The notes under the pieces are model-generated. The model made no database searches and was not told the DNA's origin. It worked only from the letters and a program-made list of their open reading frames with translations. DNA of 64,000 bases from assembly GCA_016198905.1 (NCBI GenBank), contig JACQHR010000032.1:10390-74389 (forward strand), given 5' to 3'. Numbering within the stretch: the stretch's first letter is position 1; each line of letters starts with the position of its first letter. This document shows, piece after piece, positions 24,605 to 49,869 of this stretch. This stretch comes from Candidatus Omnitrophota bacterium (GTDB taxonomy: Bacteria > Omnitrophota > Gorgyraeia > Aquiviventales > Aquiviventaceae). Made by a program: the position numbers and the translations under genes.

Positions 24605-24963
24605 GCCTCGCAGGGATCGTGTGGCTCGCCACACCCGCGTGGGCGACGATCGATAACTTCAAGAGTTACAAAGCGGCCTATCCAGGCAAAGACGCCAAAG
24701 CCTACTCGTGCAAGGTCTGCCATCAACACCCCGTTGGACGTGCGGGCGATCTCAATGCGTACGGGAAGGCGTTGCAGCAGTCGAAGGCGCAGATCGGCGC
24801 CAAGAAGCTGACGGTCGAGGACTATCGTGCGAGTGAGAAGGGTGACGCCGACAGTGACGGCGCCTCGAACGTCGAGGAGATCAACGCAGGAACGTCTCCG
24901 AGCGATCCGGCATCCGTTCCAAAAGGGATTCATACTCCGCACGCTGCAGGCAAGGCCAAGTAA
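24571..24963 (+). CDS. Secreted monoheme cytochrome c with a thrombospondin-type-3-like acidic Ca-binding repeat
   Basis: RBS gaaggaggg precedes ATG 24571, which overlaps the hemA 3' end by 34 nt. Signal peptide ...ATPAWA. One CKVCH motif. DADSDGASNVEEINAGTSPSDPASVP repeat. Confidence 0.75.
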   Translation: MSARPVARIGVGLAGIVWLATPAWATIDNFKSYKAAYPGKDAKAYSCKVCHQHPVGRAGDLNAYGKALQQSKAQIGAKKLTVEDYRASEKGDADSDGASNVEEINAGTSPSDPASVPKGIHTPHAAGKAK

Positions 24964-32008: not shown

Positions 32009-32012
32009 CGAG

Positions 32013-34277: not shown

Positions 34278-34300
34278 TCCCACCGCCGACAGGAACTGCG

Positions 34301-35107
34301 ATGGTTTCACGACGCGCGCTGCTTCAGCGCGCCGTCGTCGCGGCCGGCGCGTTGGTGTTCCTTCGGCGCGCACCGACTGCGCAGGCGGCATCCGGTCAAG
34401 AGGCGGACGCGCCGCGTCCCACCCATACGCCTCGGTGGGGCATGGTGATCGACCTTGATAAATGCACCAGCTGTCAGGCATGCGTCGTCGCCTGCTGGGC
34501 CGAGAATAATCAGCCGTTACCCGGTCCTGAAGCGCACCGAGCGGGTCGGGTGATTGAATGGATGAAACTCCTCTCCGTTCACGAGGGCAGCTATCCCCGC
34601 GTCCGCCAGCGCCTCCTGCCGATCCCTTGCCAACAGTGCGATCAGCCTCCCTGCACCACGGTCTGTCCGGTCTTCGCCACGTACAAGAACCCCGAAGGGC
34701 TCGTTGCCCAGATCTACCCGCGCTGCATCGGCTGCCGCTACTGCGTCAACGCCTGTCCCTACACCTGCAAGTTCTTCAACTGGTCCGAAGCCCGGTGGCC
34801 CGCCTCCATGGCCCAGGAGCTCAACCCTGATGTGTCGGTCCGGCCCAAAGGGGTCACGGAGAAATGCACCTTCTGCCACCACCGGCTCCAGCGAGCCAAA
34901 GAACAGGCTGCGAGCGAAGGCAGGGTGCTGCAGGCAGGCGACTATGTGCCGGCCTGTATGCAAGCGTGTCCGGCCCAAGCCATCGTCTTCGGCGACCTGA
35001 ATGATCCGGCGAGCGACGTCTCCAAGGCGCAAGACAATCCGCGCCGGTTTCGGCTCCAAGAGGAACTCGGGACGGAGCCGAAAGTCACGTATCTCTCTGA
35101 GGCATGA
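34301..35107 (+). CDS. 4x[4Fe-4S] ferredoxin-like subunit (ActB2/QrcC/PsrB-like), Tat signal
   Basis: ATG 34301 gives MVSRRALLQRAVVAAGA (Tat signal). Clusters CTSCQACVVAC, CQQCDQPPCTTVCP, CIGCRYCVNACP and CTFCHHR...CMQACP. The ORF-track start 33986 overlaps the upstream gene. Confidence 0.85.
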   Translation: MVSRRALLQRAVVAAGALVFLRRAPTAQAASGQEADAPRPTHTPRWGMVIDLDKCTSCQACVVACWAENNQPLPGPEAHRAGRVIEWMKLLSVHEGSYPRVRQRLLPIPCQQCDQPPCTTVCPVFATYKNPEGLVAQIYPRCIGCRYCVNACPYTCKFFNWSEARWPASMAQELNPDVSVRPKGVTEKCTFCHHRLQRAKEQAASEGRVLQAGDYVPACMQACPAQAIVFGDLNDPASDVSKAQDNPRRFRLQEELGTEPKVTYLSEA

Positions 35108-36477
35108 GCATGGAACAACCTCGAGATATCGCGTCTGATATTGTGACGCCCATGATTCGTTGGCCGCGCGGCTACGGTGTGTTCGTGGGCTGTCTTCTCG
35201 CTGTGATCGCCTTCGCCGCGTACGCGTGGACGCAGCAACTCCGCTTCGGTCTGGGGGTCACCGGGCTGACCCGTCCGGTCTTTTGGGGCCTCTATATTAC
35301 CAACTTCGTTTTCTTCATCGGCATCAGCCATGCCGGGACGCTCATTTCCGCCATCCTGCGCCTCTGCCGAGCCGAGTGGCGCCGGCCGATTACGCGCATG
35401 GCCGAGGCCATCACGGTCCTCGTCCTGTTCATTGGGGCAGGGAACGTCATCATGGATCTGGGCCGTCCTGATCGAGCGCTGAATGTCATCCTCCATCCCA
35501 ATTTCCGGTCGCCCCTGTTATGGGACATCACCAGCATCACCACGTACCTGACCGCGAGCATGCTGTACCTCTACCTGCCGCTCATTCCAGATCTGGCCAT
35601 CCTTCGCGATCGGCTGCCCAGGCGACGGTGGTTCTATCGACCCTTAGCGCTTGGCTGGACCGGGACACCGCAACAGCACCGGCGGCTTGAGCGGGCCATT
35701 GCCATCATGGCGGTGGTCGTGATCCCGATCGCGATCTCGGTCCATACGGTAGTCTCCTGGGTGTTTGCCATGACCATCCAGCCGATGTGGCACAGCACGA
35801 TCTTCGGACCGTATTTTGTGGCCGGCGCGATCTTCTCCGGCATCGCCGCCCTCATCGTGGCCATGGCGATCTTGCGCAAGGTGTACCATCTGGAGGCGTA
35901 CCTCAAGCCCATCCATTTCAATAACCTGGGGATTCTGCTGCTCGTCATGGCCTGTCTGTGGCTGTACTTCACGTTTGCCGAGTACCTGACCACCTTCTAT
36001 GGGCATCAACCGGAGGAGATGGCCGTCTTCTGGACGAAGATCACTGGTCCGTTCGCGCCCTATTTCTGGGCCATGGCCGTGTGCTGTTTCGTGATCCCGG
36101 TGATCCTCCTGGGTATCCCGCGATTGCGGACGATTTCCGGCACCGTGGCGGCTTCAGGCTTCATTCTTATTGGGATGTGGTTGGAGCGGTTCCTCATCGT
36201 CGTGCCCTCCCTCATCAATCCCCGGTTGCCCTTTCCAGGGGGTGTCTACCACCCGAGTTGGGTGGAGCTGGCGATCACCGCAGGAGCCTTTGCGACCTTC
36301 CTCCTCTTCTATTGTCTCTTCATCAAGGTGTTCCCGATCATTTCCATCTGGGAGGTTCAGGAAGGACAGGAGCGCGGCGTGGACGAGACGGTGGAACGGT
36401 TGAAGACCTACCTTCCCACCGCAGTATCCCAGCCACCGCAGCCGGCGACATCCAGATTTCAGACCAAGTGGAGCTGA
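35104..36477 (+). CDS. NrfD/PsrC-family polytopic quinone-interacting subunit (ActC/QrcD-like)
   Basis: 4-nt ATGA overlap with the FeS gene. 457 aa with ~10 TM helices, matching ActC in size. Confidence 0.8.
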   Translation: MSMEQPRDIASDIVTPMIRWPRGYGVFVGCLLAVIAFAAYAWTQQLRFGLGVTGLTRPVFWGLYITNFVFFIGISHAGTLISAILRLCRAEWRRPITRMAEAITVLVLFIGAGNVIMDLGRPDRALNVILHPNFRSPLLWDITSITTYLTASMLYLYLPLIPDLAILRDRLPRRRWFYRPLALGWTGTPQQHRRLERAIAIMAVVVIPIAISVHTVVSWVFAMTIQPMWHSTIFGPYFVAGAIFSGIAALIVAMAILRKVYHLEAYLKPIHFNNLGILLLVMACLWLYFTFAEYLTTFYGHQPEEMAVFWTKITGPFAPYFWAMAVCCFVIPVILLGIPRLRTISGTVAASGFILIGMWLERFLIVVPSLINPRLPFPGGVYHPSWVELAITAGAFATFLLFYCLFIKVFPIISIWEVQEGQERGVDETVERLKTYLPTAVSQPPQPATSRFQTKWS

Positions 36478-36998
36478 TGCGTCTGAGACCCGTGACGTGG
36501 TGCACGGTGATGGTCGGTGCGTTCAGCCTCTGGGCCGCCCTGCGGTCTGATGCCCAGGAATCTCTCCGCGGGGGGACGCAGACCGAGGAAGAAGTCAAGG
36601 AAGCGGCCAAGCAACCGTATGCGAATGACCTGGGTTCTGATACTATTGATGTCTCGAGCTATCCACCTCAGATGCAGCGAGCCCACGTCCTGTTTTCGCA
36701 GAAATGCTCCCGTTGTCATACGCTGGCTCGACCCATCAATTCCCAATGGGCCACCGCGGTCTTCTGGGAACACTATGTGAAGCGGATGTGGCGCAAGCCG
36801 GGCAGCGGCATCAACGGAGCGGAGGCGAAACAGATCTGGGAATTTCTTGTCTACGACTCCCAGGTGCGCAAACTCGATCATCGAGAGGTATTCAAGGCGT
36901 TCCGAAGACGACTGCTGGAGGAGTTCAGGCAGCGTTACCCCGCCAGGTTCCAGGAGCTCTACGGTGGCGCGGAAGAAGACGCCGTGCGACTCTGGTAA
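36477..36998 (+). CDS. Monoheme cytochrome c (ActE-like position)
   Basis: ATG 36477 overlaps the ActC-like stop (gcTGATGc). Signal/anchor MRLRPVTWCTVMVGAFSLWAAL. One CSRCH motif. The track ORF 35958..36998 is an artefactual 5' extension. Confidence 0.7.
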   Translation: MRLRPVTWCTVMVGAFSLWAALRSDAQESLRGGTQTEEEVKEAAKQPYANDLGSDTIDVSSYPPQMQRAHVLFSQKCSRCHTLARPINSQWATAVFWEHYVKRMWRKPGSGINGAEAKQIWEFLVYDSQVRKLDHREVFKAFRRRLLEEFRQRYPARFQELYGGAEEDAVRLW

Positions 36999-37017: not shown

Positions 37018-37464
37018 GTGATGTGTCCCAGGCAACGGATCAGCCGACGGGAGTTTTTGCGGTACCTGCTCAAGAGCGGTGGGGTTGCATTCCTGGGGGC
37101 GGCGATCTATCCCATTGCGCGGTACCTCTACCCCCCGCGGGGGGTCGAGTCGTCCGTCTCCACCGTCGTGGCCGCAACGCTCGGGGAGCTGGCGGTGAAC
37201 ACAGCCAAGATCTTCCGGTTCGGCAGCCGTCCGGGACTCCTGATCAACACCCCGCAGGGTGAACTCAAAGCGTTTTCCGCGGTGTGCACGCACCTCAATT
37301 GCACCGTGCAATACGAGCCGGACAACAGCCTGATCTGGTGCGCCTGCCACAACGGCAAGTATGACTTAAACGGCCAGGTGATTTCCGGCCCGCCTCCCCG
37401 GCCGCTTGAGGCCTATCAGGTGAACGTCCGGGGCGAGGAGATCCTCGTCTCGAAGCCGGCGTAA
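37018..37464 (+). CDS. Rieske [2Fe-2S] protein
   Basis: Tat signal RISRREFLRYLLKSGG. Rieske boxes CTHLNCTV and CACHNGKYD. Confidence 0.9.
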   Translation: MMCPRQRISRREFLRYLLKSGGVAFLGAAIYPIARYLYPPRGVESSVSTVVAATLGELAVNTAKIFRFGSRPGLLINTPQGELKAFSAVCTHLNCTVQYEPDNSLIWCACHNGKYDLNGQVISGPPPRPLEAYQVNVRGEEILVSKPA

Positions 37465-37468
37465 CTCG

Positions 37469-38542
37469 ATGAGGCCCCTCGAACGCCTTCGAGCCTTCTT
37501 TCGCGAACGCTACCCCCTCGGCGGGCTGGCAGAGTTCGCCACGCACAAGACCGTCCCCGTCCACCGCCACAGCTTCTGGTACTACTGGGGCGGGATGACC
37601 CTCGCCCTTATCGGCATGCAGATCGCCAGCGGCGTGCTGCTCCTGCTCTACTACCGTCCTTCCGCCCAGGAGGCCTTCGAATCGGTCCGCTTCATCATGA
37701 CCAAGGTGCAGTTCGGATGGCTGGTGCGATCGGTCCACGCGTGGGCGGCGAACCTGGTCATTTTCTCGGCCATGGTGCATCTGGCCAGCGTCTTTTTCCT
37801 CAAGGCCTATCGGCCCCCGCGTGAGCTGACTTGGGTGACCGGGGCGGTGCTTCTGTTCCTCTTGATGGGGTTCGGGTTTACGGGCTATCTCTTACCCTGG
37901 AACACGCTGGCCTTCTTCGCCACAAAAGTCGGCACAGAGATCGCCGGCGTCGTGCCAGTCATGGGGCCGATCATACAGGTGTTCCTGCGCGGCGGCAGCG
38001 ATGTCGGCGATGTAACGCTCACGCGGTTTTTCTGGCTGCATATCGCGATTCTGCCGCTGATGGTGGTCGGTGTCATCGGGCTGCATCTGGTGATGGTGCA
38101 GCTCCAAGGGATGAGCAAGCCGCTTACCGTGCGCGAGGAGCGCTCCATCCCGTTTTTTCCGAATTTCTTCCTGCGGGACTTGATCGCCTGGGCGCTCATC
38201 CTTGGAGCGGTCCTGTCGGTCAGCGTGTACTGGCCTGCGACGCTGGGAGAGAAGGCGGATCCCTTTGCGCCGACCCCGGCAGGCATTCAGCCGGAATGGT
38301 ATTTTTTGTGGATGTTTCAGACGCTGAAGCTGGTGCCGGGACATGTCTTCGGGCTCGAAGGGGAACTGGTCGCCGTCGGGGCCACAGGAGTCGCCGGCCT
38401 GGCCTTGCTCTTGGTGCCATGGCTTGACCGGCCGGCGAGGCGCGGACGATCTCATTGGATGGTGCTCGCCGCGGGGATCCTGGCTGTGCTGTATGTCGTC
38501 GGCATGACGGGCTACGCGCTCTGGATCGGTCATCGGCCATGA
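37469..38542 (+). CDS. Cytochrome b (fused b6 + subunit IV-like)
   Basis: 357 aa with ~8 TM helices. Contains FWYYWGGMTLAL, His-bearing helices, and the Qo-site PEWY motif (GIQPEWYFLWMFQTLK). Confidence 0.9.
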   Translation: MRPLERLRAFFRERYPLGGLAEFATHKTVPVHRHSFWYYWGGMTLALIGMQIASGVLLLLYYRPSAQEAFESVRFIMTKVQFGWLVRSVHAWAANLVIFSAMVHLASVFFLKAYRPPRELTWVTGAVLLFLLMGFGFTGYLLPWNTLAFFATKVGTEIAGVVPVMGPIIQVFLRGGSDVGDVTLTRFFWLHIAILPLMVVGVIGLHLVMVQLQGMSKPLTVREERSIPFFPNFFLRDLIAWALILGAVLSVSVYWPATLGEKADPFAPTPAGIQPEWYFLWMFQTLKLVPGHVFGLEGELVAVGATGVAGLALLLVPWLDRPARRGRSHWMVLAAGILAVLYVVGMTGYALWIGHRP

Positions 38543-39837
38543 CGAGCCGCATGATGCGGGCGAGCCTTGGCCTGGTCTTCTGGATGGCCGCGCTTCGGTT
38601 CGGGGTGGTGGTCGAGGCGGCCAATAGCTGTGTCGAGTGTCATCAGCAATTTGAATCCGGAGCATCGGCGCCGACTCAGGTGATGGCGCATGATGTCCAC
38701 ATCCAACGCGGCCTCTCCTGCTCGGACTGCCACGGCGGCGATCCCGCCGCTACCGAGGCGACATCGGCAATGGATCCGGCCAAGGGATTCATCGGCCGCC
38801 CCGCGCGAGCCGAAATCCCACAGTTCTGCGCACGTTGCCACGCCGATCCTGCCTACATGCGCAAGTACAACCCCAACCTCCCCACCGACCAGTACGCCAA
38901 GTACCTCACGAGCCAGCACGGCAAGCGCCTGGGCAGCGGAGATGCAGACGTGGCCGTGTGCACGAGCTGCCACGGCGCTCATGGGATTCGATCCAAGAAA
39001 GACCCGCAATCACCGGTGTATGCGATGAACATCCCGGGCACCTGCGCTGTGTGCCACACAAACGCGAGGCTCATGGAGCGCCACGGGCTGCCGACAAATC
39101 AGTACGCAGACTATTCGCAGAGTGTGCATGGCCAGGCGCTGCTCGTGCGCGGCGATCGGGCCGCGCCCCACTGCGCCAGTTGCCACGGTTCGCATGAAGC
39201 CTCGCGGCCGAAGGTGGTCGCCATCGGGAATATCTGCGCCCAGTGCCATGGTCTCACACGCGACCTATTTACCAAGAGCCCCCACAAACGGGCCCATGAG
39301 GTGCTGGGGCTTCCGGAATGCGAGGTGTGTCACGGCAACCATCTGATCCGCAAGCCGACGGATGAGATGCTGGGAACCGGATCGGATGCGGTCTGCGTCA
39401 ACTGTCATGAGCCCGGCTCCGCCGGCTACGTCACCGCCCAGCAGATGCGCGAAGCCATTGAACGCCTAAATACGCAGATGACCGGCGCCCAGGTGACCGT
39501 CGCGCAGGCCGCACAGCTTGGGATGGAGGTGGCCGATGCGGAGTTCGCCCTCAACCAGGCGACGGCGCAACTCACCCAGGCACGGACCTATGTGCATTCG
39601 TTCTCCGCCTCAACAATGGAGCCCATCGCCGAGGAGGGCATCCGTTATGCTCGGCAGGCCGAAACTCAGGGTCAGCAGGCGATTCACGAGTTCGGGTTCC
39701 GCCGCCATGGATTATGGATGACCTTAGCGATTCTGTTCTTGGTGGTCGGCGGGCTCGCGCTCTTCATTCGAGATCTTGAACGACCGAACTCCTCAGGCAA
39801 GCAGGATCCGCCGGCACCGCCTCACGGACCTGCCTGA
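38539..39837 (+). CDS. Nonaheme cytochrome c with C-terminal coiled region and TM anchor
   Basis: ATGA overlap with the cytochrome b stop. Nine CXXCH motifs (CVECH, CSDCH, CARCH, CTSCH, CAVCH, CASCH, CAQCH, CEVCH, CVNCH). C-terminal TM helix WMTLAILFLVVGGLALFI. Confidence 0.85.
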   Translation: MTSRMMRASLGLVFWMAALRFGVVVEAANSCVECHQQFESGASAPTQVMAHDVHIQRGLSCSDCHGGDPAATEATSAMDPAKGFIGRPARAEIPQFCARCHADPAYMRKYNPNLPTDQYAKYLTSQHGKRLGSGDADVAVCTSCHGAHGIRSKKDPQSPVYAMNIPGTCAVCHTNARLMERHGLPTNQYADYSQSVHGQALLVRGDRAAPHCASCHGSHEASRPKVVAIGNICAQCHGLTRDLFTKSPHKRAHEVLGLPECEVCHGNHLIRKPTDEMLGTGSDAVCVNCHEPGSAGYVTAQQMREAIERLNTQMTGAQVTVAQAAQLGMEVADAEFALNQATAQLTQARTYVHSFSASTMEPIAEEGIRYARQAETQGQQAIHEFGFRRHGLWMTLAILFLVVGGLALFIRDLERPNSSGKQDPPAPPHGPA

Positions 39838-41364
39838 TTGTCCGCGATGACGCATAGCGATCACCCTAAGTCTCCAAGTCTCCTGCGCAATCCCGTCAGT
39901 TTTGTGGGCATTGTGGTTGCGGCGATGAGCACCGCGTTCGGCCTGCCGCTCATGTTTCTCGATATGGTGAGCCGGCGGACGCATCCGTATCTTGCCGTGC
40001 TCATTTATCTCGTCTTGCCATTTGTGGCGACGGGCGGGGTCGGGCTCATTGTGTTTGGGGCGCTGTGGGAACGATGGCGGAGACGGCGCCGGCCAGAACT
40101 GATCGTGCCGCCGCTGCCGCAGATTGACTTGAATCAGCCTGCGCACCAGGCAGCCGTGGTGGCAGCGGTGACCGCCACCATGGTGATCGTGATCCTCTTG
40201 TCGATCACCGGCTATCGGGCGTACCACTTCACCGAGTCGGTCAAGTTCTGCGGCTTGGTCTGCCACCAGGTCATGAAACCGGAGTACACGGCCTATCAGT
40301 ACTCGCCGCACGCGCGGGTGGCCTGCACGCAGTGCCACGTCGGACCGGGGGCGGACTGGTTTGTGCGCTCGAAGCTGAGCGGTCTGTATCAGGTGTACGC
40401 GGTGACCACTCACCGCTATCCGCGGCCGATCGAGACCCCGGTCAAGAGTTTACGGCCGGCGCAAGAGACGTGCGAGCAATGCCACTGGCCGGCGAAATTC
40501 TTCGGCGCGCAACAGAAGACGTTTACGCATTACCTTTCGGATGAGGCGAATAGTCCTTGGCAGATCCAGATGCTGATCAAGGTCGGCGGCGGCAATCCGG
40601 CCACCGGCGGGGCCTCCGGCATCCATTGGCATATGAACATTGCCAAAACGATTGAGTATGTTGCCGCGGATAAACAGCGCGAAGTGATTCCCTGGGTGCG
40701 GGTGACCGAGCCCGGTGGGCACGTGAGGGTGTACCAAAGTACGGAGGTACCGCTCTCCCCGGCGCAAGTGACCGCGGCTACCCCGCGGCAGATGGATTGC
40801 GTGGACTGCCACAACCGGCCCTCGCACATCTACACGCCGCCGGATCGCGCCCTCGATGCGGCATTGGAACAAGGGCGCATTGACTCGTCGCTGCCGTATG
40901 TCAAGCGCGAGGCGGTGCGCTTGTTGGCGGGCACGTACCGCAGCGAGGCGCAGGCCATGGCTGCGATCCGCACAGGCCTCACACGTTTCTATGAGACGAC
41001 CTATCCGGATATGTGGCGACAGCGGCAGGCGGACATCCAGCGCGCCGCCGAGGAAACGGCGAAGGTGTTTGCCCGCACCATCTTTCCTGAAATGAAGGCC
41101 GACTGGCGCGTGCATCCGAACCACATCGGCCATCGCAACACGGATGGGTGTTTTCGTTGTCACGACGGCCAGCATGCGAGCGCCGACGGCCACGTGATCA
41201 CGAAAGACTGCAACGCCTGCCACACGATCCTCGCACAGGGCGCTCCGGCTACCCTGCAGGGCCAACCGTTGCGGGAGCAGCCCTTCCAACACCCCGTGGA
41301 TATGGGGATGGACGTCACCGAGCAAAAATGCAGTCTCTGTCACAACGGCACGACCGGGCTCTAA
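39838..41364 (+). CDS. Inner-membrane multiheme cytochrome c, NapC/NirT-related (ImcH-like architecture)
   Basis: Three N-terminal TM helices. An FCGLVCH motif (CX3CH) stands where NapC/NrfH proteins have FCxxCH. Six CXXCH motifs follow (CTQCH, CEQCH, CVDCH, CFRCH, CNACH, CSLCH). 508 aa. The start is TTG 39838 or ATG 39847. Confidence 0.75.
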   Translation: MSAMTHSDHPKSPSLLRNPVSFVGIVVAAMSTAFGLPLMFLDMVSRRTHPYLAVLIYLVLPFVATGGVGLIVFGALWERWRRRRRPELIVPPLPQIDLNQPAHQAAVVAAVTATMVIVILLSITGYRAYHFTESVKFCGLVCHQVMKPEYTAYQYSPHARVACTQCHVGPGADWFVRSKLSGLYQVYAVTTHRYPRPIETPVKSLRPAQETCEQCHWPAKFFGAQQKTFTHYLSDEANSPWQIQMLIKVGGGNPATGGASGIHWHMNIAKTIEYVAADKQREVIPWVRVTEPGGHVRVYQSTEVPLSPAQVTAATPRQMDCVDCHNRPSHIYTPPDRALDAALEQGRIDSSLPYVKREAVRLLAGTYRSEAQAMAAIRTGLTRFYETTYPDMWRQRQADIQRAAEETAKVFARTIFPEMKADWRVHPNHIGHRNTDGCFRCHDGQHASADGHVITKDCNACHTILAQGAPATLQGQPLREQPFQHPVDMGMDVTEQKCSLCHNGTTGL

Positions 41365-43220
41365 TCCCCCTAGGGTTGGCGCTGACGCTGGGCGTCGTGG
41401 CGGCGGCCACAGCCGCCGGCGCCGAGAACATCGATAACCCCACGTGTCTGGCCTGCCATGGTGATGCGGCGAGCCCGCGATTTGTAGATGGCCAGAAATT
41501 CTCGGCATCGGTCCACAGCGCGTTGACCTGCACCAGCTGCCACACAGACATCAGCAGCGTGCCGCATGCCGTGCCCGCACAGCCTGTCAGCTGCAGCCAG
41601 TGTCACACCTTGGAAGCCGAGGTCTACCTGCGCAGCGACCACGGGCAGGCGGTTCATCGCGGAGTGACGGAGGCCGCGTCCTGCCGTGATTGCCACGGCA
41701 ATGCTCACACGCTGCTTTCCGTCCACGACCCGGCCTCGCCTGTGACGCGAGCCAACATTCCCCAAACGTGCGCGCAATGCCACGGCAAGACACAGGACAT
41801 GGCCAAATTTCGCTTGGCGCAGAAAACTCCCATCCGCTCATATCTCGAGAGCGTCCATGGTTTGGCCTTCCAAAAGGGCAATACCGCCGCAGCCGTCTGT
41901 ACCGACTGCCATGGCTCGCACGATTTGCACCGGGCCACGAATCCCCAATCCAAGCTCTACTGGCAGGTGATTCCTGCTACGTGCGGCAAGTGTCATGAGA
42001 ACATTCGGGAAACGTTTAGGCGCAGCATCCACGGGCAGGCGGTCGCAACCGGCAAGCGCGATGCCCCCGTCTGTACCGATTGTCACGGCGAGCATTCCAT
42101 CGACGCGGTCAAGCAAGCCACGTCGAAAGTGTTTCCCTCGAATATCCCCGAGACCTGCGGCCAGTGCCATGCGGCTGAGCGGATCATCACCAAGTACCAA
42201 CTGCCCTCTCACGTCGTCGATACGTATATGAAGAGTTTCCATGGCCTCTCGCTGCAATTGGGATCGCTACGGGCGGCGAATTGCGCCTCGTGCCATGGAG
42301 CGCACGACATCTTGCCGTCCAATGACCCGCGCTCCGCCGTGCATCCGAATAATCTGGCGAAGACCTGCGGCCAGTGTCATCCCGGCGTCAGTCTCCAGGT
42401 CACCAGAGGCCAGATCCATTCAGGCACGCAACCCGGTTTGGAGCACCGCGCGGTGGGATGGGTGCGCCGCCTCTACCTCATCCTCATCGTAACAGTTGTC
42501 GGCGGGATGTTGCTGCACAACTTCCTGGATTTTCGCAAGAAGCTGCAAGTGCATCGCCAGCGAATGACCGCGGTGTCCGGGCCGCTGCGCATGACCCTGA
42601 ATGAGCGCATCCAGCATGCGGTGCTGGCCATCGCATTCATCGCGCTGGCCTACACGGGATTTGCGCTGAAACATCCGCAGGCATGGTGGGCCAGCCCGTT
42701 TGTGGGTCGCGTTGACTGGCGCAGCCTGAGCCATCGCGGAGCCGCACTCGTCTTCTGTGTGCTTGGAGCCTACCATATCTGGTTTGTGTGCCGCACGGAC
42801 CGGGGACGCAAGCACCTGCGCGCACTCTTGCCCATGCGTTCGGATCTGATTCAATTCGGACAGATGCTCGGCTACGACGTGGGCCTGCGGGGGCAACGGC
42901 CCATGATGGGGCACTACAGCTATGTGGAAAAAATCGAATACTGGGCGTTGGTATGGGGCTCCATGGTCATGGTGGTGACCGGCGCCTTGATGACTTGGCA
43001 AGACTGGACGCTGCGGTTATTTCCCAAGTGGATTTTTGATGTCATCACGTCGATCCATTACTACGAGGCGATCCTGGCGTGTCTGGCGATTCTGCTCTGG
43101 CATGGCTACTTCACCATGTTCGATCCCGACGAGTATCCGATGAAATGGACCTGGCTCACCGGGCGGCCTTCGGAATCAGATGAACACCACCGCAAGGAAG
43201 ACGAGCCGGCGCAGCACTGA
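41328..43220 (+). CDS. Fusion of an 11-heme cytochrome c domain to a diheme cytochrome b (FdnI/HydC-like) membrane domain (CbcL-like)
   Basis: ATG 41328 gives signal LIPLGLALTLGVVAAATAAGA. Eleven CXXCH motifs. The C-terminal ~230 aa have 4-5 TM helices with conserved His (ERIQHAVLAIAFIALAYTGF..., YHIWF, IHYYEAILACLAILLWHGY). Overlaps the upstream gene by 37 nt. Confidence 0.8.
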   Translation: MQSLSQRHDRALIPLGLALTLGVVAAATAAGAENIDNPTCLACHGDAASPRFVDGQKFSASVHSALTCTSCHTDISSVPHAVPAQPVSCSQCHTLEAEVYLRSDHGQAVHRGVTEAASCRDCHGNAHTLLSVHDPASPVTRANIPQTCAQCHGKTQDMAKFRLAQKTPIRSYLESVHGLAFQKGNTAAAVCTDCHGSHDLHRATNPQSKLYWQVIPATCGKCHENIRETFRRSIHGQAVATGKRDAPVCTDCHGEHSIDAVKQATSKVFPSNIPETCGQCHAAERIITKYQLPSHVVDTYMKSFHGLSLQLGSLRAANCASCHGAHDILPSNDPRSAVHPNNLAKTCGQCHPGVSLQVTRGQIHSGTQPGLEHRAVGWVRRLYLILIVTVVGGMLLHNFLDFRKKLQVHRQRMTAVSGPLRMTLNERIQHAVLAIAFIALAYTGFALKHPQAWWASPFVGRVDWRSLSHRGAALVFCVLGAYHIWFVCRTDRGRKHLRALLPMRSDLIQFGQMLGYDVGLRGQRPMMGHYSYVEKIEYWALVWGSMVMVVTGALMTWQDWTLRLFPKWIFDVITSIHYYEAILACLAILLWHGYFTMFDPDEYPMKWTWLTGRPSESDEHHRKEDEPAQH

Positions 43221-43241: not shown

Positions 43242-44195
43242 ATGGCTGCAAGATCGAAACATTCCGTTAGTCATCCGTTGGCAGCGTGCGTGTTCTTGAG
43301 CATTCTTTTTTCCGCGACCTCCCTATTAAGAGCGGAGCCTGCCGTATCTCAAAAGAGGCCTGAGTTTGCAGGGCCTGAAACGTGCGCGGGCTGTCACGCG
43401 GCTGAGTACGAAGAATGGAAACACTCGCGCCATGCGGGCGCATTCGGCGAGCCTTTCGCTTCTTATTGGAACGCGCACGGCAAGAGTGCCGAATGCCTCG
43501 GCTGCCATACGACAGGTTTTGATTCGCCCAGCGGCCAATTTGCTTTTGAAGGGGTGAGCTGCGAATCTTGCCACGGGCCCTACCACGAGGGGCATCCCGA
43601 AGCGGGTGTGACCATGCACCTGGCTACGGATTCATCGGCGTGCGCCACCTGCCACCGCCAGACGTTTCTTGAGTGGCAACTCAGCAAGCACGGGCAAAAG
43701 GGCATCCGCTGTTTTGATTGCCACCGCGTGCACCAACAAGGGCTTCGCCACCCGAGCGTTGAAGCGCAGTGCGGCGCCTGCCATGCCGAACGACTTCAGG
43801 ATTTTGCGCACGCCACCCATCACGCATCCGGATTGACGTGTGCGACCTGCCATCTGCCCGAACCGAAGACCACAGGCGTGGGGGGCACGGGTGCCGCCAG
43901 CCACACGTTCCTCGTCGGTGCGGAAACATGTGCCGCGTGCCATGAGGAGACCGTGCACAAGAGCCAGAAGATGCAGCAGTTGGAGTCGGCGGTCACGCGG
44001 TTAAGCACCCAGCCCTCAGCAGAAGAATTGGCGCGGCTCCAAGAGGAAGTCAGGCAGTTGGAATTTGTTGCGGATGTGCAGCGCGCCGGACGCGCGCGGA
44101 TGATACTGCTGGCGTTATTGATTGGCGTGGCTTTCGGCAGTCTCATGGTGCTCATTTCCCTGGGGCGTTCGCGCAAAGACGGCGGGCCATCCTGA
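43242..44195 (+). CDS. Octaheme cytochrome c with C-terminal TM anchor
   Basis: Eight CXXCH motifs (CAGCH, CLGCH, CESCH, CATCH, CFDCH, CGACH, CATCH, CAACH). C-terminal TM helix MILLALLIGVAFGSLMVLISL. Confidence 0.85.
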   Translation: MAARSKHSVSHPLAACVFLSILFSATSLLRAEPAVSQKRPEFAGPETCAGCHAAEYEEWKHSRHAGAFGEPFASYWNAHGKSAECLGCHTTGFDSPSGQFAFEGVSCESCHGPYHEGHPEAGVTMHLATDSSACATCHRQTFLEWQLSKHGQKGIRCFDCHRVHQQGLRHPSVEAQCGACHAERLQDFAHATHHASGLTCATCHLPEPKTTGVGGTGAASHTFLVGAETCAACHEETVHKSQKMQQLESAVTRLSTQPSAEELARLQEEVRQLEFVADVQRAGRARMILLALLIGVAFGSLMVLISLGRSRKDGGPS

Positions 44196-45094
44196 TGGAT
44201 TCCAGAATGACCCGCAGGACATTTTTACGCCATTCAACCGTCGGCGCACTCGGTGCTTGCGCCGTCTGCGCCGGCGTGGCGGACGGTTCAATCGCCGCAT
44301 CGGCTGCAACCGATGCCACACGCATCGGGACGCTGGTTGACGTGACGCGCTGTATTGGCTGCCGCGCGTGCGTGCGCGCCTGCAATCAACGCAACGGGTT
44401 GCCGCAGCCTGAGAAGCCGAGCACCGTCTGGAACGGGCCGGTGGAGGAGCTTAACTTCGGCCGCTGGACGACGGTGAATCTGCAGGGTACGCCGGCGAAC
44501 GGTGCAGCCGTGCCGGTGAAGCGCCAGTGCATGCACTGTCTTGAGCCAGCCTGTGTTTCCGTTTGCCCCGTCGCAGCACTTCAGCAGTTACCCAATGGCG
44601 TGGTGATGTATCGAAAAGAGCGCTGCATCGGCTGCCGCTACTGCATGTTTGCTTGTCCCTTTGGGATCCCGAAGTTCGAGTGGGAGGCCAGCCTTGATCC
44701 CGAAATCGGCAAGTGCCAATTTTGCGCGCAACACGCGGTGTTTACCGGGCCTGCGTGCGCGCAAGCGTGCCCGACCGGAGCGCTGAAGTTCGGCTCCCGT
44801 CAGGCGCTCCTGGCGGAAGCCAAGGCGCGCATTCATGTGCGCCCTGAGCGCTATCGGGATCATGTCTATGGAGAGCACGAGGCAGGTGGCACCGCCTGGC
44901 TGTACTTATCGAGCAGGTCTTTTTCGGATTTAGGTTTCAACACCCAACTGCCAAGGTTCGGGCTTCCACGGTTAACCTGGGTGGCCCTCAAGCTGGTGCC
45001 CGGGGTCGTGATCGCCCTTGTGATTGTCTTAACCTCGGTTTCTTTCAGGATGGGGCGTCTCGCACAGCAGGCGGCCGTGCATGATCGCACATGA
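44195..45094 (+). CDS. Tat-exported 4x[4Fe-4S] protein with C-terminal TM helix (HybA/NrfC-like)
   Basis: TGATG stop/start overlap. Tat signal MTRRTFLRHSTVGALG. Clusters CIGCRACVRAC, CMHCLEPACVSVCP, CIGCRYCMFACP and CQFC...CAQACP. TM helix LKLVPGVVIALVIVLTSV. Confidence 0.85.
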   Translation: MDSRMTRRTFLRHSTVGALGACAVCAGVADGSIAASAATDATRIGTLVDVTRCIGCRACVRACNQRNGLPQPEKPSTVWNGPVEELNFGRWTTVNLQGTPANGAAVPVKRQCMHCLEPACVSVCPVAALQQLPNGVVMYRKERCIGCRYCMFACPFGIPKFEWEASLDPEIGKCQFCAQHAVFTGPACAQACPTGALKFGSRQALLAEAKARIHVRPERYRDHVYGEHEAGGTAWLYLSSRSFSDLGFNTQLPRFGLPRLTWVALKLVPGVVIALVIVLTSVSFRMGRLAQQAAVHDRT

Positions 45095-46263
45095 TTGAAG
45101 TTTTTTTCATCCTGGCCTATGCGATTATTGTGGCCGCTTTTGTGCGCTCCAAGACCCATCTGCGCTTGCATACGCGCTTGGAAGTGCTGCTGCTGGCGTC
45201 CGCTGCTTTGGCGGTGGGGCTGTATGCGCTGACCCAGCGCATGACCCAGGGTTTGGGAGCGACCACACACCTTTCGGATAGCTTTCCGTGGGGTATTTGG
45301 ATCAGTGTTGATTTATGCGGCATTGCGTTGGCTTCCGGCGGATTTATCCTCGCGGGCATTGTCCACCTGTTTCGCGTGCATCGGCTGGAGCCCATTTTGC
45401 GCCCCACAGTGTTAACCGCCTTTATCGCGTACCAATTAGTTGCGGCCATTCTGGTTTTGGATTTAGGCAGGCCGCTGCGCTTTTGGCACCCGCTGGTCAT
45501 GTGGCAGCACCATTCGGTGATGTTTGAGATCACCTTGTGCCTTGCGTTGTACACGGTGGTTCTCGCTCTGGAATTCAGTCCTGTGCTTTTCGAATACCTG
45601 GGCTTCCATAGGGCAGTCGAGGCTCTGCAGAAGATGACGTTGCCGGTAGTCATGGCGGGAGTCATCCTTTCAACTCTGCACCAGTCATCCTTCGGGTCGC
45701 TGTTTCTGATTGTGCCGCAGAAGTTATCGCCTTATTGGTACACGCCGATCCTGCCCATCCTGTTTCTGTTGTCTGCTGTCTGCGCGGGATTAGGGGTAGC
45801 ACTGCTTGAGTGCGTCCTGTTCGAGCGGGCGGCAGGCGGCGAGCGCTTGGATGCCGGCATTGTGCCGATGCTGGCCCGCTGGACCAGTCGAGCGCTCATG
45901 CTCTATGTGATCGTGCGGCTGACGGACTTACTGGTTCGCGGCAGCTGGAGGGCGGTGTTCCAGCATCCTTGGCTGGACGCTTCGTTGGCGGTTGAGATCA
46001 TCGCCGGAAGCCTTCTTCCGGCGCTCTGGCTTGGCCGCATCGCCAAGAGGAATGCGCATCAGGCCGCTGCCGCAGCGGTGACTGTGCTAGGGGGAGTTGT
46101 CTGGCACAGGCTCAATGTGTCCTGGTTCGGGCTCATCCCGGCATCAGGAGTCTTTTATGTGCCGAGCTGGCTTGAGATCGCCATCACCCTTGCCTTGGTG
46201 ATGATCGGCATACTGGTGTTTATTGCTGCGGCGCAATTATTGCCGGTTTTTCCTCGCCGATAA
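45091..46263 (+). CDS. NrfD/HybB-family polytopic membrane subunit (second copy)
   Basis: ATGA overlap with the FeS gene. 390 aa with ~10 TM helices. Confidence 0.8.
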   Translation: MIEVFFILAYAIIVAAFVRSKTHLRLHTRLEVLLLASAALAVGLYALTQRMTQGLGATTHLSDSFPWGIWISVDLCGIALASGGFILAGIVHLFRVHRLEPILRPTVLTAFIAYQLVAAILVLDLGRPLRFWHPLVMWQHHSVMFEITLCLALYTVVLALEFSPVLFEYLGFHRAVEALQKMTLPVVMAGVILSTLHQSSFGSLFLIVPQKLSPYWYTPILPILFLLSAVCAGLGVALLECVLFERAAGGERLDAGIVPMLARWTSRALMLYVIVRLTDLLVRGSWRAVFQHPWLDASLAVEIIAGSLLPALWLGRIAKRNAHQAAAAAVTVLGGVVWHRLNVSWFGLIPASGVFYVPSWLEIAITLALVMIGILVFIAAAQLLPVFPRR

Positions 46264-46444: not shown

Positions 46445-48226
46445 ATGAAACAGTGGACGCGTCTCCTCGGGTCTCTCAAAGTCGCTGTGCCGCTGCTGGT
46501 GACCATTGCGGCTGTGCTGGCGTGGGGGACCATCTATGAGGCCACATTCGGCACAGCGGCCGTGCAGCAGTTCGTGTATCACGCCTGGTGGTTCCAGGCG
46601 CTGCTGGGATTCCTCGCGGTGAATCTTACCATTGCGGCTCTGCAGCGCTATCCCTGGAAACGGCAGCACCTGCCGTTTGTCCTCGCACACCTCGGGATCA
46701 TCCTCATTTTGATCGGCGGAATTCTCGGCGGCCGGTTCGGCGTCGAGGGCCAAATGATCATTCCGGAAGGGCAAGCCGCGCATACCTTGGAAACGCCCGG
46801 CAACGTGCTCGTTGTGCGCCAGCAGCATCCGGAGCTCCGCGTGGAGATTCCCACGCAATTTGAAACGCAAGCCTGGGTGCATGAGCCCAAGATGACCGTG
46901 CCCGTGCAACTTGGCGCGCGGAGCATCGCATTGACCATTGACCGCTACTATCCCGATGCGGTCATGGACGAAGAGATAGCGAACGATGGTACGGACGACA
47001 ACCCTGCGATCCAACTGACGCTCGAGCACGCCGGTCAACACGACACCGTATGGTTAATCGCTCGGGACCCGGAGCGGTTTGGCACGGGGTGGGGCGACGC
47101 GCACGTGTTGTTCCTAGAGCCCAGGACCGAGGAAGATCTCAAGCAACTCATCGGCAGCGCCGCACACCCCAGTCGCGCGAGAGGCGTGGTGTCGCTGACG
47201 CTGCCGGGTGCCAAGCGAGCACGCGAGATTGAGGTGCCTGACGTCTTGGATCACACCGTACCTCTTGAAGGGACCTCGTACAGCCTGACCTTCAAGGACT
47301 ACTTTCCGGATTTTGCGCTCACAGAGCACGGGCCGGCGAGCCGCTCGATGCAACCGAACAATCCTGCAGTCTCGTTGACCCTCAACGGGCCGGAAGGCAC
47401 CGACACCTACCTGTTATTTGCGCTCCATCCCGAGTTTCAGTCGATCCACGACTTCCAGCACGTGATTCCAGCAACGGTAAGTTACACGCATCCCGCAGGC
47501 GCGAGTCTGCCGCCGAACGGCATCAGTGTCCTTCGAACGGCCTCAGGCGGATTGCTTGCCGTGCTGACGGACGGTGCTGCAAAGCGACAGGTGATCAATC
47601 CCGTCGCCGTCGGCACCGAGTACACACACCCCTCGTTGGGATACCATTTCACCATTGCCGCGTATGCTCCACGCGCGCAGGTGACCCAACACATCACGAA
47701 TCGATCCAATGAGGTGCATGCGGAGATGTTGCATCTCATTGGGCGTGAGGGTGCACGTGCAACAGAGGCCTGGGTTGGCATGCGTGGCACCGCCCAACTC
47801 GAATTGGGAGAAGCCCCACTGATGGTTGAGTATCGGCCCGCGCAGCGAGCGTTGCCCGTGACGATCAAATTGCTCGATTTTCGCAAGCTTGATTACCCCG
47901 GCACGCAAATGGCCTCCAGCTTCGAGAGCGACGTGGAAATGACCGATGCCGCGCGCGGAATCATCCTGATGCGCACCATTAAAATGAACCATCCGTTGCA
48001 GTACCGCGGGCATAGTTTCTACCAATCCAGTTACATTGATGGCCCGACGCAAACCACCATCCTCTCGGTGCGCAGCGACCCGGGCACACCATTCGTCTAT
48101 GCGGGGTTCCTCGTCGTCATTGGTGGAGTATTGAGTTTGTTCATCGTCAGAGGCGCGCGCAAGGACGCCGCCCTCACACGAGCCGAACGGGAGTCGCTCA
48201 AACGCCTACAGAAAGGACGCGCATGA
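46445..48226 (+). CDS. resB: System II cytochrome c biogenesis protein ResB/Ccs1
   Basis: N-terminal TM helices (SLKVAVPLLVTIAAVLAWGTIYE, WWFQALLGFLAVNL), a large periplasmic domain and a C-terminal TM helix. Directly coupled to ccsA. Confidence 0.85.
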   Translation: MKQWTRLLGSLKVAVPLLVTIAAVLAWGTIYEATFGTAAVQQFVYHAWWFQALLGFLAVNLTIAALQRYPWKRQHLPFVLAHLGIILILIGGILGGRFGVEGQMIIPEGQAAHTLETPGNVLVVRQQHPELRVEIPTQFETQAWVHEPKMTVPVQLGARSIALTIDRYYPDAVMDEEIANDGTDDNPAIQLTLEHAGQHDTVWLIARDPERFGTGWGDAHVLFLEPRTEEDLKQLIGSAAHPSRARGVVSLTLPGAKRAREIEVPDVLDHTVPLEGTSYSLTFKDYFPDFALTEHGPASRSMQPNNPAVSLTLNGPEGTDTYLLFALHPEFQSIHDFQHVIPATVSYTHPAGASLPPNGISVLRTASGGLLAVLTDGAAKRQVINPVAVGTEYTHPSLGYHFTIAAYAPRAQVTQHITNRSNEVHAEMLHLIGREGARATEAWVGMRGTAQLELGEAPLMVEYRPAQRALPVTIKLLDFRKLDYPGTQMASSFESDVEMTDAARGIILMRTIKMNHPLQYRGHSFYQSSYIDGPTQTTILSVRSDPGTPFVYAGFLVVIGGVLSLFIVRGARKDAALTRAERESLKRLQKGRA

Positions 48227-49869
48227 TGAAGAAACTGATTTCAGCTTTCGCCTGCGGACTGCTCGCGTTTGCAGCGACGAGTCCAGTGGCGGCCGATCGT
48301 GACACGCCGATCCCTCCCCAAGCGCTGCAAACGATCCGGCACATGGCGATTCAACATAACGGGCGCGTCAAGCCCTTCGAAAGTTTCGCACGGGAGACGC
48401 TCAGCCTCATTACGGGGGAACCGCAGTGGGGTCATGACGACCCGGTGCAAACGGTTGTCTCGATGATGGCGAACCCCGATCATTGGCAGCAGATACCGAT
48501 GCTGACCGTCCCGTTTATTCCGCTGCGCGAGCCGCTCGGGCTCGCTCGCAAGACGAAGCGTATCTCCTACAATGACCTTGTGGCCACACGGAAACTGATG
48601 GGGATGCTACCGGCGATCGTCGGCAAGCAACGGCGCGATGAGAAATTGACGATTGCAGAGAATGAAACCATGGATCTCTTTCAGCGTTTTGTCACACTCA
48701 GCGACGTGCTGGAGCAGAAAATCAGCATCGTGCCTCCAGCCGTGGCAACCGAGCACGTGTGGGTGTCGGTAACCGAGCTGACAGGCTATGCTTCGCAGCA
48801 GCAGGAGGTGTTGCGCGGCGCTTGGGTGAGTTTTCTTGAGGCGGTGCGTGTTGGACAATCGTCCGTCGTGGATGAGCGCGCCACCCAGCTCGTCCAACAA
48901 CTCACCGCGGCCAATCCATCGGCCTATCCAGCCAGGTGGCGTTTGAATCTTGAAGTGTGGTACCACCATGCCCAACCGTTTCGCATCGCGTGGGTCGCCT
49001 ATCTCGTGGCAGTGATTGCGCTGTTGGTGAATCTCGGCTCCGCAAGAACGTCAACGACGGTTCTTGGGGCGGTGGCCCTCGGCACGGCGTTTATCGTCCA
49101 TGCGGGCGGCATCCTGTGCCGGGTGATCCTCGGGGGACGGCCTCCGGTATCCAATTTCTTTGAAACGATGCTCTGGTTACCGTTTGTCGCGGTCGTCGTT
49201 TCGTTGATTCTCGAGCGCATCTATCGCGCGCGCTACATCAGCCTGGCCGCTGCGATGCTCGCGGCGATCACACTCATATTAGCTGAGCATGTGCCGTTGG
49301 ACTCAAGCATCTCGCCAGTCGTTGCCGTGTTGCACAGTAATTTATGGCTGACGATTCATGTGCTCACCATCGTGGCAAGTTACGGCGCGCTCGCGCTGGC
49401 CACGGTCCTGGCGCATGTCTACGGGTGGCTCTACGTGACGCGACGCACACCGCACCCGGCTTTGCCGGCGCTCGGCTTGTTCCTCTACCGTGTCATCCAA
49501 GTCGGGGTCGTCCTGCTCGCCGGAGGCATTATGCTCGGGGCGGTGTGGGCCAACGCGTCGTGGGGGCGGTATTGGGGGTGGGATCCAAAAGAGACGTGGT
49601 CGCTCATCACGTTATTATGGTTTCTTGCGATCCTCCACGGCCGGTTCGCCGGGTGGATCAAAGGCGTCGGAGTGGCGTTGTCGACGATCACTGGTTTCTT
49701 TCTCCTCTTGATGACGTACTACGGGGTGAGTTTCTATCTCGTCGGGCTGCACAGTTACGCTGGCGGGCACGCAAAGCCCTTGCCGGCACTGCTCATCACG
49801 TATCTCGTCGTCGAAGCGGCATTCATCATCACAGTCGGTGCCGTAGCCGCACGGCGGCGTACGACGTAA
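48223..49869 (+). CDS. ccsA: System II cytochrome c biogenesis protein CcsA/ResC (with N-terminal periplasmic extension)
   Basis: ATGA overlap with resB. Trp-rich heme-handling motif WANASWGRYWGWDPKETW. Multiple TM helices. 548 aa. Confidence 0.9.
   Translation: MMKKLISAFACGLLAFAATSPVAADRDTPIPPQALQTIRHMAIQHNGRVKPFESFARETLSLITGEPQWGHDDPVQTVVSMMANPDHWQQIPMLTVPFIPLREPLGLARKTKRISYNDLVATRKLMGMLPAIVGKQRRDEKLTIAENETMDLFQRFVTLSDVLEQKISIVPPAVATEHVWVSVTELTGYASQQQEVLRGAWVSFLEAVRVGQSSVVDERATQLVQQLTAANPSAYPARWRLNLEVWYHHAQPFRIAWVAYLVAVIALLVNLGSARTSTTVLGAVALGTAFIVHAGGILCRVILGGRPPVSNFFETMLWLPFVAVVVSLILERIYRARYISLAAAMLAAITLILAEHVPLDSSISPVVAVLHSNLWLTIHVLTIVASYGALALATVLAHVYGWLYVTRRTPHPALPALGLFLYRVIQVGVVLLAGGIMLGAVWANASWGRYWGWDPKETWSLITLLWFLAILHGRFAGWIKGVGVALSTITGFFLLLMTYYGVSFYLVGLHSYAGGHAKPLPALLITYLVVEAAFIITVGAVAARRRTT

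Follow-up and report, generated by a model that had tools for sequence, protein, structure and literature searches.

ImcH and CbcL are the best-studied entries from the quinone pool to extracellular electron transfer, but nearly all that is known of them comes from Geobacter, where their genes are unlinked. In a 64,000-nucleotide (nt) stretch of contig JACQHR010000032.1 (assembly GCA_016198905.1, Candidatus Omnitrophota bacterium), referred to here as the window, an ImcH-like and a CbcL-like inner-membrane cytochrome are encoded side by side, which raises the question of what such an arrangement means for the way the two proteins work. The original prediction for this locus, made from the DNA letters, took the adjacency and overlap of the two genes, named here gene A and gene B, as a sign of a potential-tuned pair working in one system, possibly in the oxidative direction. 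The features concerned are the following.

39847-41364, + strand: gene A, ImcH-family inner-membrane heptahaem cytochrome with three transmembrane (TM) helices, one CX3CH and six CXXCH motifs and a NrfH/NapC-type quinol site
41328-43220, + strand: gene B, CbcL/MtrH/MtoC-family fused cytochrome with a signal peptide, an 11-haem periplasmic c domain (amino acids (aa) 30-370), a linker TM helix and a four-helix FdnI-type dihaem b domain
41328-41364, + strand: 37 nt shared by the stop region of gene A and the start of gene B, an overlap that requires the ATG at 41328

Both genes are new members of known families, close relatives of which were catalogued in 2018. The adjacency of ImcH and CbcL-like genes is real, ancient and common, but it is not obligatory. 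Neither gene is a chance open reading frame (ORF), since each has thousands of homologues: among 8000 candidates scored for each, 7999 match gene A and 7296 match gene B at E<=0.001. The family of gene A comprises 807 clusters (50% identity) at E<=1e-30.

The ORF of gene A (39838-41364) encodes 508 aa when it is read from a TTG, and 505 aa when it is read from the ATG at 39847. The latter is likely the true start, because the deposited protein and all homologues in alignment A1 begin there. The deposited protein (P0001, 505 aa) is 100% identical to gene A and is annotated as 'NapC/NirT family cytochrome c [Candidatus Omnitrophica bacterium]'. Hydropathy places membrane helices at residues 20-38, 51-69 and 102-120. 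There are seven haem motifs, six CXXCH and one CX3CH (C135-GLV-C139-H140), the latter located right after TM3 and invariant in 18 aligned homologues of gene A. The three N-terminal TM helices and seven haem motifs of the original prediction are borne out, while its length of 508 aa holds for the TTG start and is likely to be 505 aa.

Homologues of ImcH were defined by Zhong and Shi (PMC6295460) by three TM helices, a membrane-proximal atypical CX3CH and five to nine CXXCH motifs. Those from outside Geobacter are reported to share 31.5-49% identity with the Geobacter ImcH group. Geobacter ImcH, GSU3259, has 507 aa, motifs at positions 132, 156, 205, 311, 428, 448 and 486, and helices at 13-35, 45-67 and 100-122 (PMC6295460 Table S3). 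Gene A resembles it in size, in its three N-terminal TM helices and in the CX3CH that comes first, followed by six CXXCH in register: the haem spacing is 25/49/109/117/20/40, as compared to 25/49/106/117/20/38 in GSU3259, and its core is repeated throughout 150 cluster representatives. According to Pimenta et al. (bioRxiv 10.1101/2023.05.03.539133), haem 1 of GSU3259 is ligated by H137 and Q179, and the quinol site contains the conserved residues E127, K173 and Y188. The corresponding residues of gene A are H140 and the haem 1 distal Q182, together with E130 in TM3, K176 and Y191; of these K176, Q182 and H140 are invariant in alignment A1.

The region around TM3 and the first haems of gene A is homologous to NapC/NirT/NrfH, as it is in GSU3259. 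Gene A scores 30.2 bits against PF03264 (NapC/NirT, cutoff 24.1) and 47.6 bits (E 1.7e-12) against the NrfH model TIGR03153, where it does not reach the equivalog cutoff of 134.2, as expected of a protein that is not NrfH. A sequence search of the PDB matched NrfH 2j7a_C (E 1.3e-3). Residues 99-217 of gene A align with residues 8-121 of NrfH (2j7a/2vr0), and the order of a membrane helix followed by the quinol-site haem is shared with NrfH and with NapC/NirT/CymA. Compared with NrfH, gene A has two more TM helices and carries seven haems where NrfH has four, and its first haem motif is a CX3CH with a distal Gln in place of CXXCHXM. A protein 71% identical to gene A, OGX46065.1 from Omnitrophica WOR_2 (cluster P0009), is among the ImcH homologues catalogued in Table S3 of PMC6295460. 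Judged from its sequence, gene A is a full ImcH-family member, because of its haem layout, its quinol-site residues, its NrfH/NapC homology and this catalogued relative. A further, functional mark of the family is that it is needed to reduce high-potential extracellular acceptors. GSU3259 itself is absent from the best 80 genome loci, which include no Desulfuromonadota, and from the best 150 cluster representatives, and the Geobacter fingerprint (N-terminus MTLRKT, C-terminus ...GKH and the exact haem spacing) occurs in none of the 150. Gene A differs from GSU3259 in its genetic setting, being located inside a large operon with a CbcL-like gene next to it. In Geobacter imcH and cbcL are found at separate loci, as the original prediction had it, and imcH is monocistronic (PMC4251993).

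Gene B encodes 630 aa from the ATG at 41328, with 11 CXXCH motifs between residues 40 and 351. Residues 420-598 match PF01292 (49.1 bits, cutoff 30.1) and the FdnI model TIGR01583 (E 8.5e-13). His430, His483, His577 and His592 are located inside predicted helices and are invariant in 26 homologues. In the AlphaFold2 (AF2) model (pLDDT 69), a single long linker helix leads into a four-helix bundle. A Foldseek comparison of this model with the PDB gave FdnI 1kqf_C as the top match (probability 1.00, TM-score 0.56 on target), followed by the hydrogenase-1 cytochrome b 4gd3_A. Formate dehydrogenase-N and hydrogenase-1 have FdnI (1kqf chain C) and HyaC as their b subunits, and with these gene B shares a bundle of four helices that binds two b haems through four His. 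However, its bundle is fused to a multihaem c domain, while theirs dock onto Fe-S and catalytic subunits. The fusion of 11 haem motifs to an FdnI-type dihaem b domain, as it was first described, is confirmed by PF01292, TIGR01583 and the fold. Five membrane helices are clear from AF2 and hydropathy (371-412, 424-448, 464-489, 532-556 and 567-598), while most CbcL/MtrH/MtoC family members are reported with six; the helices at 491-517 may count as a sixth in TMHMM.

The architecture of gene B, a signal peptide and a multihaem c domain with a C-terminal FdnI/HydC-type b domain in one polypeptide, is that of CbcL (GSU0274) and of MtoC/MtrH from Gallionella, Dechloromonas and Rhodoferax. The MtoC of Fe(II) oxidisers belongs to the same family, in which the c domain carries 3-23 CXXCH motifs. 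The final haem spacings and the distance to the first TM helix are 42, 28 and ~31 residues in gene B and 43, 28 and 28 in CbcL. The table of CbcL/MtrH/MtoC proteins (PMC6295460 Table S2) lists 11-haem proteins of Omnitrophica and Opitutae with haem spacing nearly that of gene B. Both CbcL and Gallionella MtoC have nine haems and other N-terminal spacings, and CbcL in the strict sense is defined by nine haems with the Geobacter spacing and by an identity above 57% among its members. Gene B is thus a member of the broad CbcL/MtrH/MtoC family, in its 11-haem subgroup, and with 11 haems rather than nine it is not a strict CbcL orthologue; the CbcL architecture assigned to it in the original prediction stands at the level of the family only. 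Local alignments of gene B with GSU0274 gave z <= 1.7 and no significant match, with GSU0274 represented by garbled machine-read fragments from a supplementary figure of PMC9129911. A division into two orthologue groups, a 'downstream-type' to which gene B is closer and an Acidobacterial 'upstream-type', was considered and rejected. The 11-haem forms make up one subgroup, because they align over their full length at 41-57% identity and the split tracks the host phylum.

The similarity of the two proteins to their families goes beyond generic CXXCH content, as had been expected of them, and extends to haem register, CX3CH, quinol-site residues, NrfH/NapC homology and an FdnI fold with four His. 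In the PDB sequence search gene A matched only NrfH and gene B gave weak generic cytochromes, with no solved structure of ImcH or CbcL among the matches.

Whether the genes overlap depends on the start of gene B. The NCBI protein (P0121, 614 aa) starts at a TTG at 41376, which leaves an 11-nt gap in place of the 37-nt overlap. From the ATG at 41328 the protein has a normal signal peptide, similar to that of 25+ homologues. The same pair in Pontiellaceae bacterium B1224 (GCA_029432815.1; L172:6572-9956) is called with a 59-nt overlap. The ATG is favoured and the overlap is likely, because this start restores the signal peptide and because the Pontiellaceae pair is called overlapping. The predicted 37-nt overlap therefore holds with the ATG, but it is lost with the NCBI start.

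The frequency of the pairing was surveyed around the ImcH homologues most similar to gene A (43-71% identity), in 80 loci from species-level genomes and 80 from metagenomes. The loci were anchored on the ImcH homologues and searched with the b domain of gene B. They represent Acidobacteriota, Ignavibacteriota, Bacteroidota, Verrucomicrobiota, Kiritimatiellota, KSB1, Zixibacteria, Binatia, Latescibacteria, Gemmatimonadota and others. The counts for the 99 well-flanked loci, with at least 2.5 kb on either side, are as follows.

60/99 loci (61%): fused multihaem-c/cytochrome-b gene directly adjacent on the same strand
7/99 loci: adjacent cytochrome b without haem c motifs
14/99 loci: CbcL-like gene within 10 kb, not adjacent
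18/99 loci: no CbcL-like gene within 10 kb

Pairing is thus the majority arrangement among non-Geobacter ImcH homologues, and the adjacency, which had been viewed as a special trait of the window, is not one. The adjacent fused genes mostly encode 11 haems, some 9, 13 or 19. The median gap in adjacent pairs is ~31 nt, and overlaps are frequent. Both gene orders were found, the dominant one being the cbcL-like gene followed by the imcH-like gene. The order of the window is found in genomes of the PVC type (Planctomycetes, Verrucomicrobia and Chlamydiae), and it occurs in L080 (Kiritimatiellales), L164, L148, L165, L166, L167 and the Pontiellaceae genome. Rieske/cytochrome b and multihaem c genes are found beside ImcH in 46-48 of 167 loci.

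In the window's own clade the constant core consists of HemA, an MtrA-like cytochrome, an outer-membrane barrel, a Rieske protein, cytochrome b, a multihaem c and ImcH. A CbcL-like gene directly follows ImcH in the window, L165 and L166, while in L167 one extra cytochrome intervenes. The close relatives L085, L088 and L170/L171 have no CbcL-like gene next to ImcH, with the whole upstream synteny kept. In the literature searched, no mention was found of a typical adjacency of ImcH-like and CbcL-like genes or of fusions between cytochrome b and ImcH; Figure 7 of PMC6295460 may show the adjacency.

The surveyed loci also contain longer arrangements. In L058, L067, L084, L162 and similar loci of Ignavibacteriota/Bacteroidota, a single run of co-directional genes encodes a CbcL-like protein (13 haems), a multihaem c, a stand-alone cytochrome b, ImcH, a Rieske protein, cytochrome b and a multihaem c, which brings analogues of CbcL, CbcBA and ImcH into one apparent operon. 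A Lentisphaerae metagenome-assembled genome (MAG) carries tandem CbcL-like genes (L173:5815-9881; 729 and 626 aa), and a homologue of ImcH is absent from the 8 kb around them. At the locus of Pontiellaceae B1224 (Kiritimatiellota) an Rrf2 regulator, HemA and ResB/CcsA are located close by.

Natural fusions bring ImcH and b-type cytochromes even closer. Of the 150 best cluster representatives, two (P0279 and P0291) each combine an N-terminal cytochrome b (PF01292, four helices) with a complete ImcH module that has three TM helices, CX3CH and six CXXCH. P0279 (L169:4261-6465) is preceded, with a stop/start overlap, by a 511-aa cytochrome that aligns to residues 11-415 of gene B (E 2e-46), so that in L169 the parts of CbcL and ImcH are joined at a different breakpoint. 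P0291 (L168:1413-3728) is located between the NiFe-hydrogenase large subunit and HycI, the usual place of a HyaC-type quinone-reducing b subunit. The b domains of P0279 and P0291 show no BLAST similarity to that of gene B. Such fusions speak for an ability of ImcH to function in physical contact with a b cytochrome of the FdnI type.

On balance, we favour a reading in which genes A and B would be parallel, energetically different couplers of the quinone pool to a shared periplasmic and outer-membrane cytochrome network, encoded in one operon. It builds on the protein identities, the architecture, the operon context and the widespread pairing, all of which are seen directly. Quinone coupling, parallel operation and an energetic division of labour are drawn from the analogy with Geobacter ImcH and CbcL. 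Gene A would hold a NrfH/NapC-type quinol site by haem 1 at the periplasmic face, from which electrons would enter its seven-haem wire. Menaquinol oxidation by Geobacter ImcH takes place at the periplasmic face, and electrons and protons leave on the same side (bioRxiv 10.1101/2023.05.03.539133). The exchange through ImcH would be electroneutral, because both are released on that side. In gene B a quinone site on the cytoplasmic side and the 11-haem periplasmic domain would be connected by the FdnI-type dihaem b bundle, through which electrons would cross the membrane, and exchange through this bundle would be assisted by, or would consume, the membrane potential. Geobacter CbcL is thought to oxidise menaquinol on the cytoplasmic side and to be off at high potential, with a lower energy yield (bioRxiv 10.1101/2022.08.31.506072). 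Genes A and B would be modules of a single large operon for extracellular electron transfer, transcribed together and probably coupled in translation, and this operon would also supply an MtrAB-like conduit and Rieske/cytochrome b, Qrc/ACIII-like and Hmc/Cbc4-like complexes. Both modules most likely share a periplasmic cytochrome pool, which would provide the cell with two energetic modes.

Several points weigh against this parallel operation. The families of A and B are assigned by published motif and residue positions, by fold and by classified relatives, and the quinol-site residues of gene A are mapped onto GSU3259 by a constant +3 offset between published motif positions rather than by an alignment. 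With 11 haems and an N-terminal spacing unlike that of CbcL or MtoC, the functional equivalence of gene B to CbcL would be an extrapolation. The b::ImcH fusions suggest physical coupling over independent parallel operation. Potentials, direction and expression are not readable from sequence.

The pair is part of a co-directional gene run of ~25 kb, from about 24.5 to 49.9 kb of the window. Its order is HemA, a small monohaem protein, the Cyc2-like protein, the MtrA/DmsE-like cytochrome, the 693-aa barrel, a Band7 protein, a Qrc/ACIII-like tetrad, a monohaem c, the Rieske protein, cytochrome b, a 9-haem anchored cytochrome, genes A and B, an 8-haem cytochrome, HmcB-like and HmcC-like proteins, ResB and CcsB. 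All gene junctions from QrcD (35104) to HmcC (46263) are between -37 and +21 nt. A promoter/terminator scan was uninformative, with 17 terminator-like sites against 14.6 expected and hence no excess. The neighbours are listed below.

25033-26259 (ORF from 24964), + strand: candidate Cyc2-like fused monohaem cytochrome-porin, with AIPAFARKY...CNVCH...PRL
27034-28227, + strand: MtrA/DmsE-like multihaem cytochrome, 8 CXXCH and 1 CX4CH
28241-30322, + strand: MtrB-like outer-membrane beta-barrel, 693 aa, AF2 pLDDT 86
31484-36998, + strand: Qrc/ACIII-like complex, consisting of a pentahaem QrcA-like, a molybdopterin-like QrcB-like, an Fe-S QrcC-like and an NrfD-type subunit, then a small monohaem c
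37018-37464, + strand: Rieske protein, first of three genes directly upstream of gene A
37469-38542, + strand: cytochrome b6/subunit-IV-type cytochrome b
38539-39837, + strand: membrane-anchored 9-haem cytochrome, last of these three genes
43242-44195, + strand: 8-haem membrane-anchored cytochrome, directly downstream of gene B
44195-45094, + strand: HmcB/HybA-like Fe-S protein
45091-46263, + strand: HmcC/HybB-like NrfD protein
46445-49869, + strand: ResB and CcsB (system II cytochrome c maturation), at the end of the cluster

The cluster is predicted to encode an outer-membrane conduit and up to five quinone-coupled inner-membrane modules. The MtrA-like cytochrome scores 153.6 bits against TIGR03508, under the cutoff of 192.2. 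The barrel, annotated as 'hypothetical protein', has no Pfam match, and its best PDB fold match is MtrB (6r2q_B, E 8e-12, TM-scores 0.59/0.63), far above TonB-dependent receptors. Its family comprises ~123 proteins, almost all from MAGs labelled 'Omnitrophica', and its members are always found beside an MtrA-like cytochrome. The link to MtrB needed fold comparison because BLAST of the barrel against the MtrB_PioB protein of L001 found no match. As modelled, the MtrA-like and MtrB-like proteins form a putative porin-cytochrome conduit. It resembles MtrAB, MtoAB and PioAB in the barrel encoded beside a DmsE/MtrA-like cytochrome, and the Geobacter extHIJKL-extMNOPQS cluster in a porin-cytochrome unit next to a Rieske/cytochrome b (ExtP-like) complex with multihaem c. 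Its own traits are a barrel without a Pfam match, no adjacent MtrC-like surface cytochrome, and ImcH-like and CbcL-like genes in the same operon.

The Cyc2-like candidate is a secreted protein of 408 aa with a single haem and no TM helix, and it ends in ...MFNF, with a C-terminal Phe. Cyc2 proteins are recognised by a signal peptide, AXPXFAR[Q/K][T/Y] before a single CXXCH, PXL after it, a length of at least 365 aa and a 16-strand porin. The candidate has no Pfam or PDB match and its likeness to Cyc2 is at the motif level only, so that it is a candidate for an Fe(II) oxidase of the fused cytochrome-porin kind; the gene was not found in any of the related loci examined.

Among the inner-membrane modules, the Rieske/cytochrome b/9-haem trio (37018-39837) comprises the most constant neighbours of gene A in the window's own clade. 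The 43242-46263 triad would be a further quinone-coupled module. This triad and the Qrc-like tetrad follow the subunit logic of CbcBA and Cbc4 (CbcSTU) from Geobacter and of Hmc and Qrc from sulfate reducers, with 8-haem c, Fe-S and NrfD components in the triad. However, all scores are under the NCBIfam equivalog cutoffs, and the window proteins are therefore relatives rather than orthologues. The 8-haem/HmcB/HmcC triad also accompanies the CbcL-like gene in L165 and L167. The Qrc/ACIII-like block, located in the window between the barrel and the Rieske genes, is missing from this place in L088 and L165-L167, and is found upstream of Rieske in L085.

Instead of working in parallel, ImcH and the CbcL-like protein might be coupled into a single unit, either as a menaquinone redox loop or as a heterocomplex, which we hold to be possible but rather unlikely. 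In such a loop the CbcL-like protein might, in the fashion of FdnI, use its c domain to accept electrons from periplasmic donors of low potential and reduce menaquinone on the cytoplasmic side, and ImcH might re-oxidise the menaquinol on the periplasmic side and pass the electrons to higher-potential periplasmic or extracellular acceptors, with 2 H+ translocated per 2 e-. The topologies would fit: both have the N-terminus inside, and the C-terminus is inside in the b bundle and outside in ImcH. The tight adjacency across many phyla, in both orders and with short gaps or overlaps, speaks for coupling, as do the b::ImcH fusions in two unrelated lineages, one after a split-off homologue of the gene B c domain and the other at the position of a hydrogenase b subunit. 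However, the fusions are few among the cluster representatives and their b domains are not BLAST-similar to that of gene B, Geobacter ImcH and CbcL oxidise quinol independently of each other and have mutants with separable phenotypes, and close relatives keep ImcH without an adjacent CbcL-like gene. An obligate ImcH-CbcL complex was demoted as the main explanation because L085, L088 and L170/L171 lack a CbcL-like gene beside ImcH. The tentative idea that ImcH and FdnI-type b cytochromes, free or CbcL-fused, are physical partners in an unrecognised all-cytochrome menaquinone redox loop would, if true, mean that energy is conserved while electrons pass between two periplasmic or extracellular cytochrome pools, and that the separate, independently acting Geobacter genes are a derived exception.

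The electrons might also run inward, a reading of which we are a little more doubtful still. Extracellular or periplasmic Fe(II) would then feed the Cyc2-like protein and an MtoAB-like conduit, and the quinone pool would be reached through an MtoC-like gene B and/or ImcH and a reversed Rieske/cytochrome b. The presence in the same cluster of a candidate Cyc2 with the family-specific motif is consistent with this direction, as are the MtrA-like/MtrB-like pair without an adjacent MtrC-like partner, a trait of MtoAB and PioAB, and the place of MtoC in the family of gene B. The order in L001 of MtrA-like, MtrB_PioB, monohaem c and CbcL-like (51% identical to gene B) resembles mtoA-mtoB-mtoD-mtoC. 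However, Fe(III) reducers and quinol oxidation are so far the only settings to which homologues of ImcH have been linked (PMC6295460), the porin part of the Cyc2-like protein is putative and its gene is missing from all related loci examined, a CbcL-like gene beside ImcH is lacking in some close relatives, and the window contains no terminal oxidase or carbon-fixation genes. Judging from the energetics of Fdh-N, quinone reduction through an FdnI-type b domain would run against the membrane potential, to the disadvantage of weak donors such as Fe(II). It is quite improbable that the adjacency has no function and reflects only a general clustering of cytochrome genes near genes for haem synthesis and cytochrome maturation. 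The location of HemA upstream and ResB/CcsB downstream of the cluster would fit such clustering, as would the 18 well-flanked loci without a CbcL-like gene within 10 kb and the modules around ImcH, which vary widely and occur in many combinations (Rieske/cytochrome b, Qrc-like, Hmc-like, MtrA-like). However, same-strand adjacency in the majority of well-flanked loci across phyla is far above what loose clustering would give, and gene fusions exist.

The 2014 paper on the discovery of ImcH stated that identifying its partners would improve sequence-based prediction (PMC4251993). The side-by-side coding outside Geobacter, the occasional fusion with a b domain and the frequent joining to Rieske/cytochrome b and MtrAB-like genes provide a concrete candidate partnership, and the gene pair is a better genomic marker than either gene alone. 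Since the overlapping pair is also present in a cultured Pontiellaceae strain, experiments are possible. In the window the pair is part of an unusually complete one-operon respiratory toolbox of an uncultured groundwater bacterium from a poorly understood lineage.

Some further features of the window were noted. The small monohaem protein (24529-24963) is paralogous to the N-terminal ~90 residues of the MtrA-like cytochrome (27034-27330), with the shared pattern ATI(D/E)..K..AYPGK..KAYSCKVCH, and both products contain Asp-rich stretches that are TSP3-like or 'GEGP dihaem'-like. The region upstream of the cluster (16645-24604) encodes a nitrite/sulfite reductase (NIR_SIR), two radical-SAM proteins, NnrS and HemA, and the order of HemA before the MtrA-like gene is kept in related loci. 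At the beginning of the window (1-2795), a 920-aa ORF without a Pfam match enters from the window edge, with a strong excess of A over T (AT skew of +0.42 in the first 2 kb). It contains degenerate tandem repeats of 126-171 nt that code for units rich in Asp, Asn, Ser and Thr, and its product is probably a secreted repeat protein.

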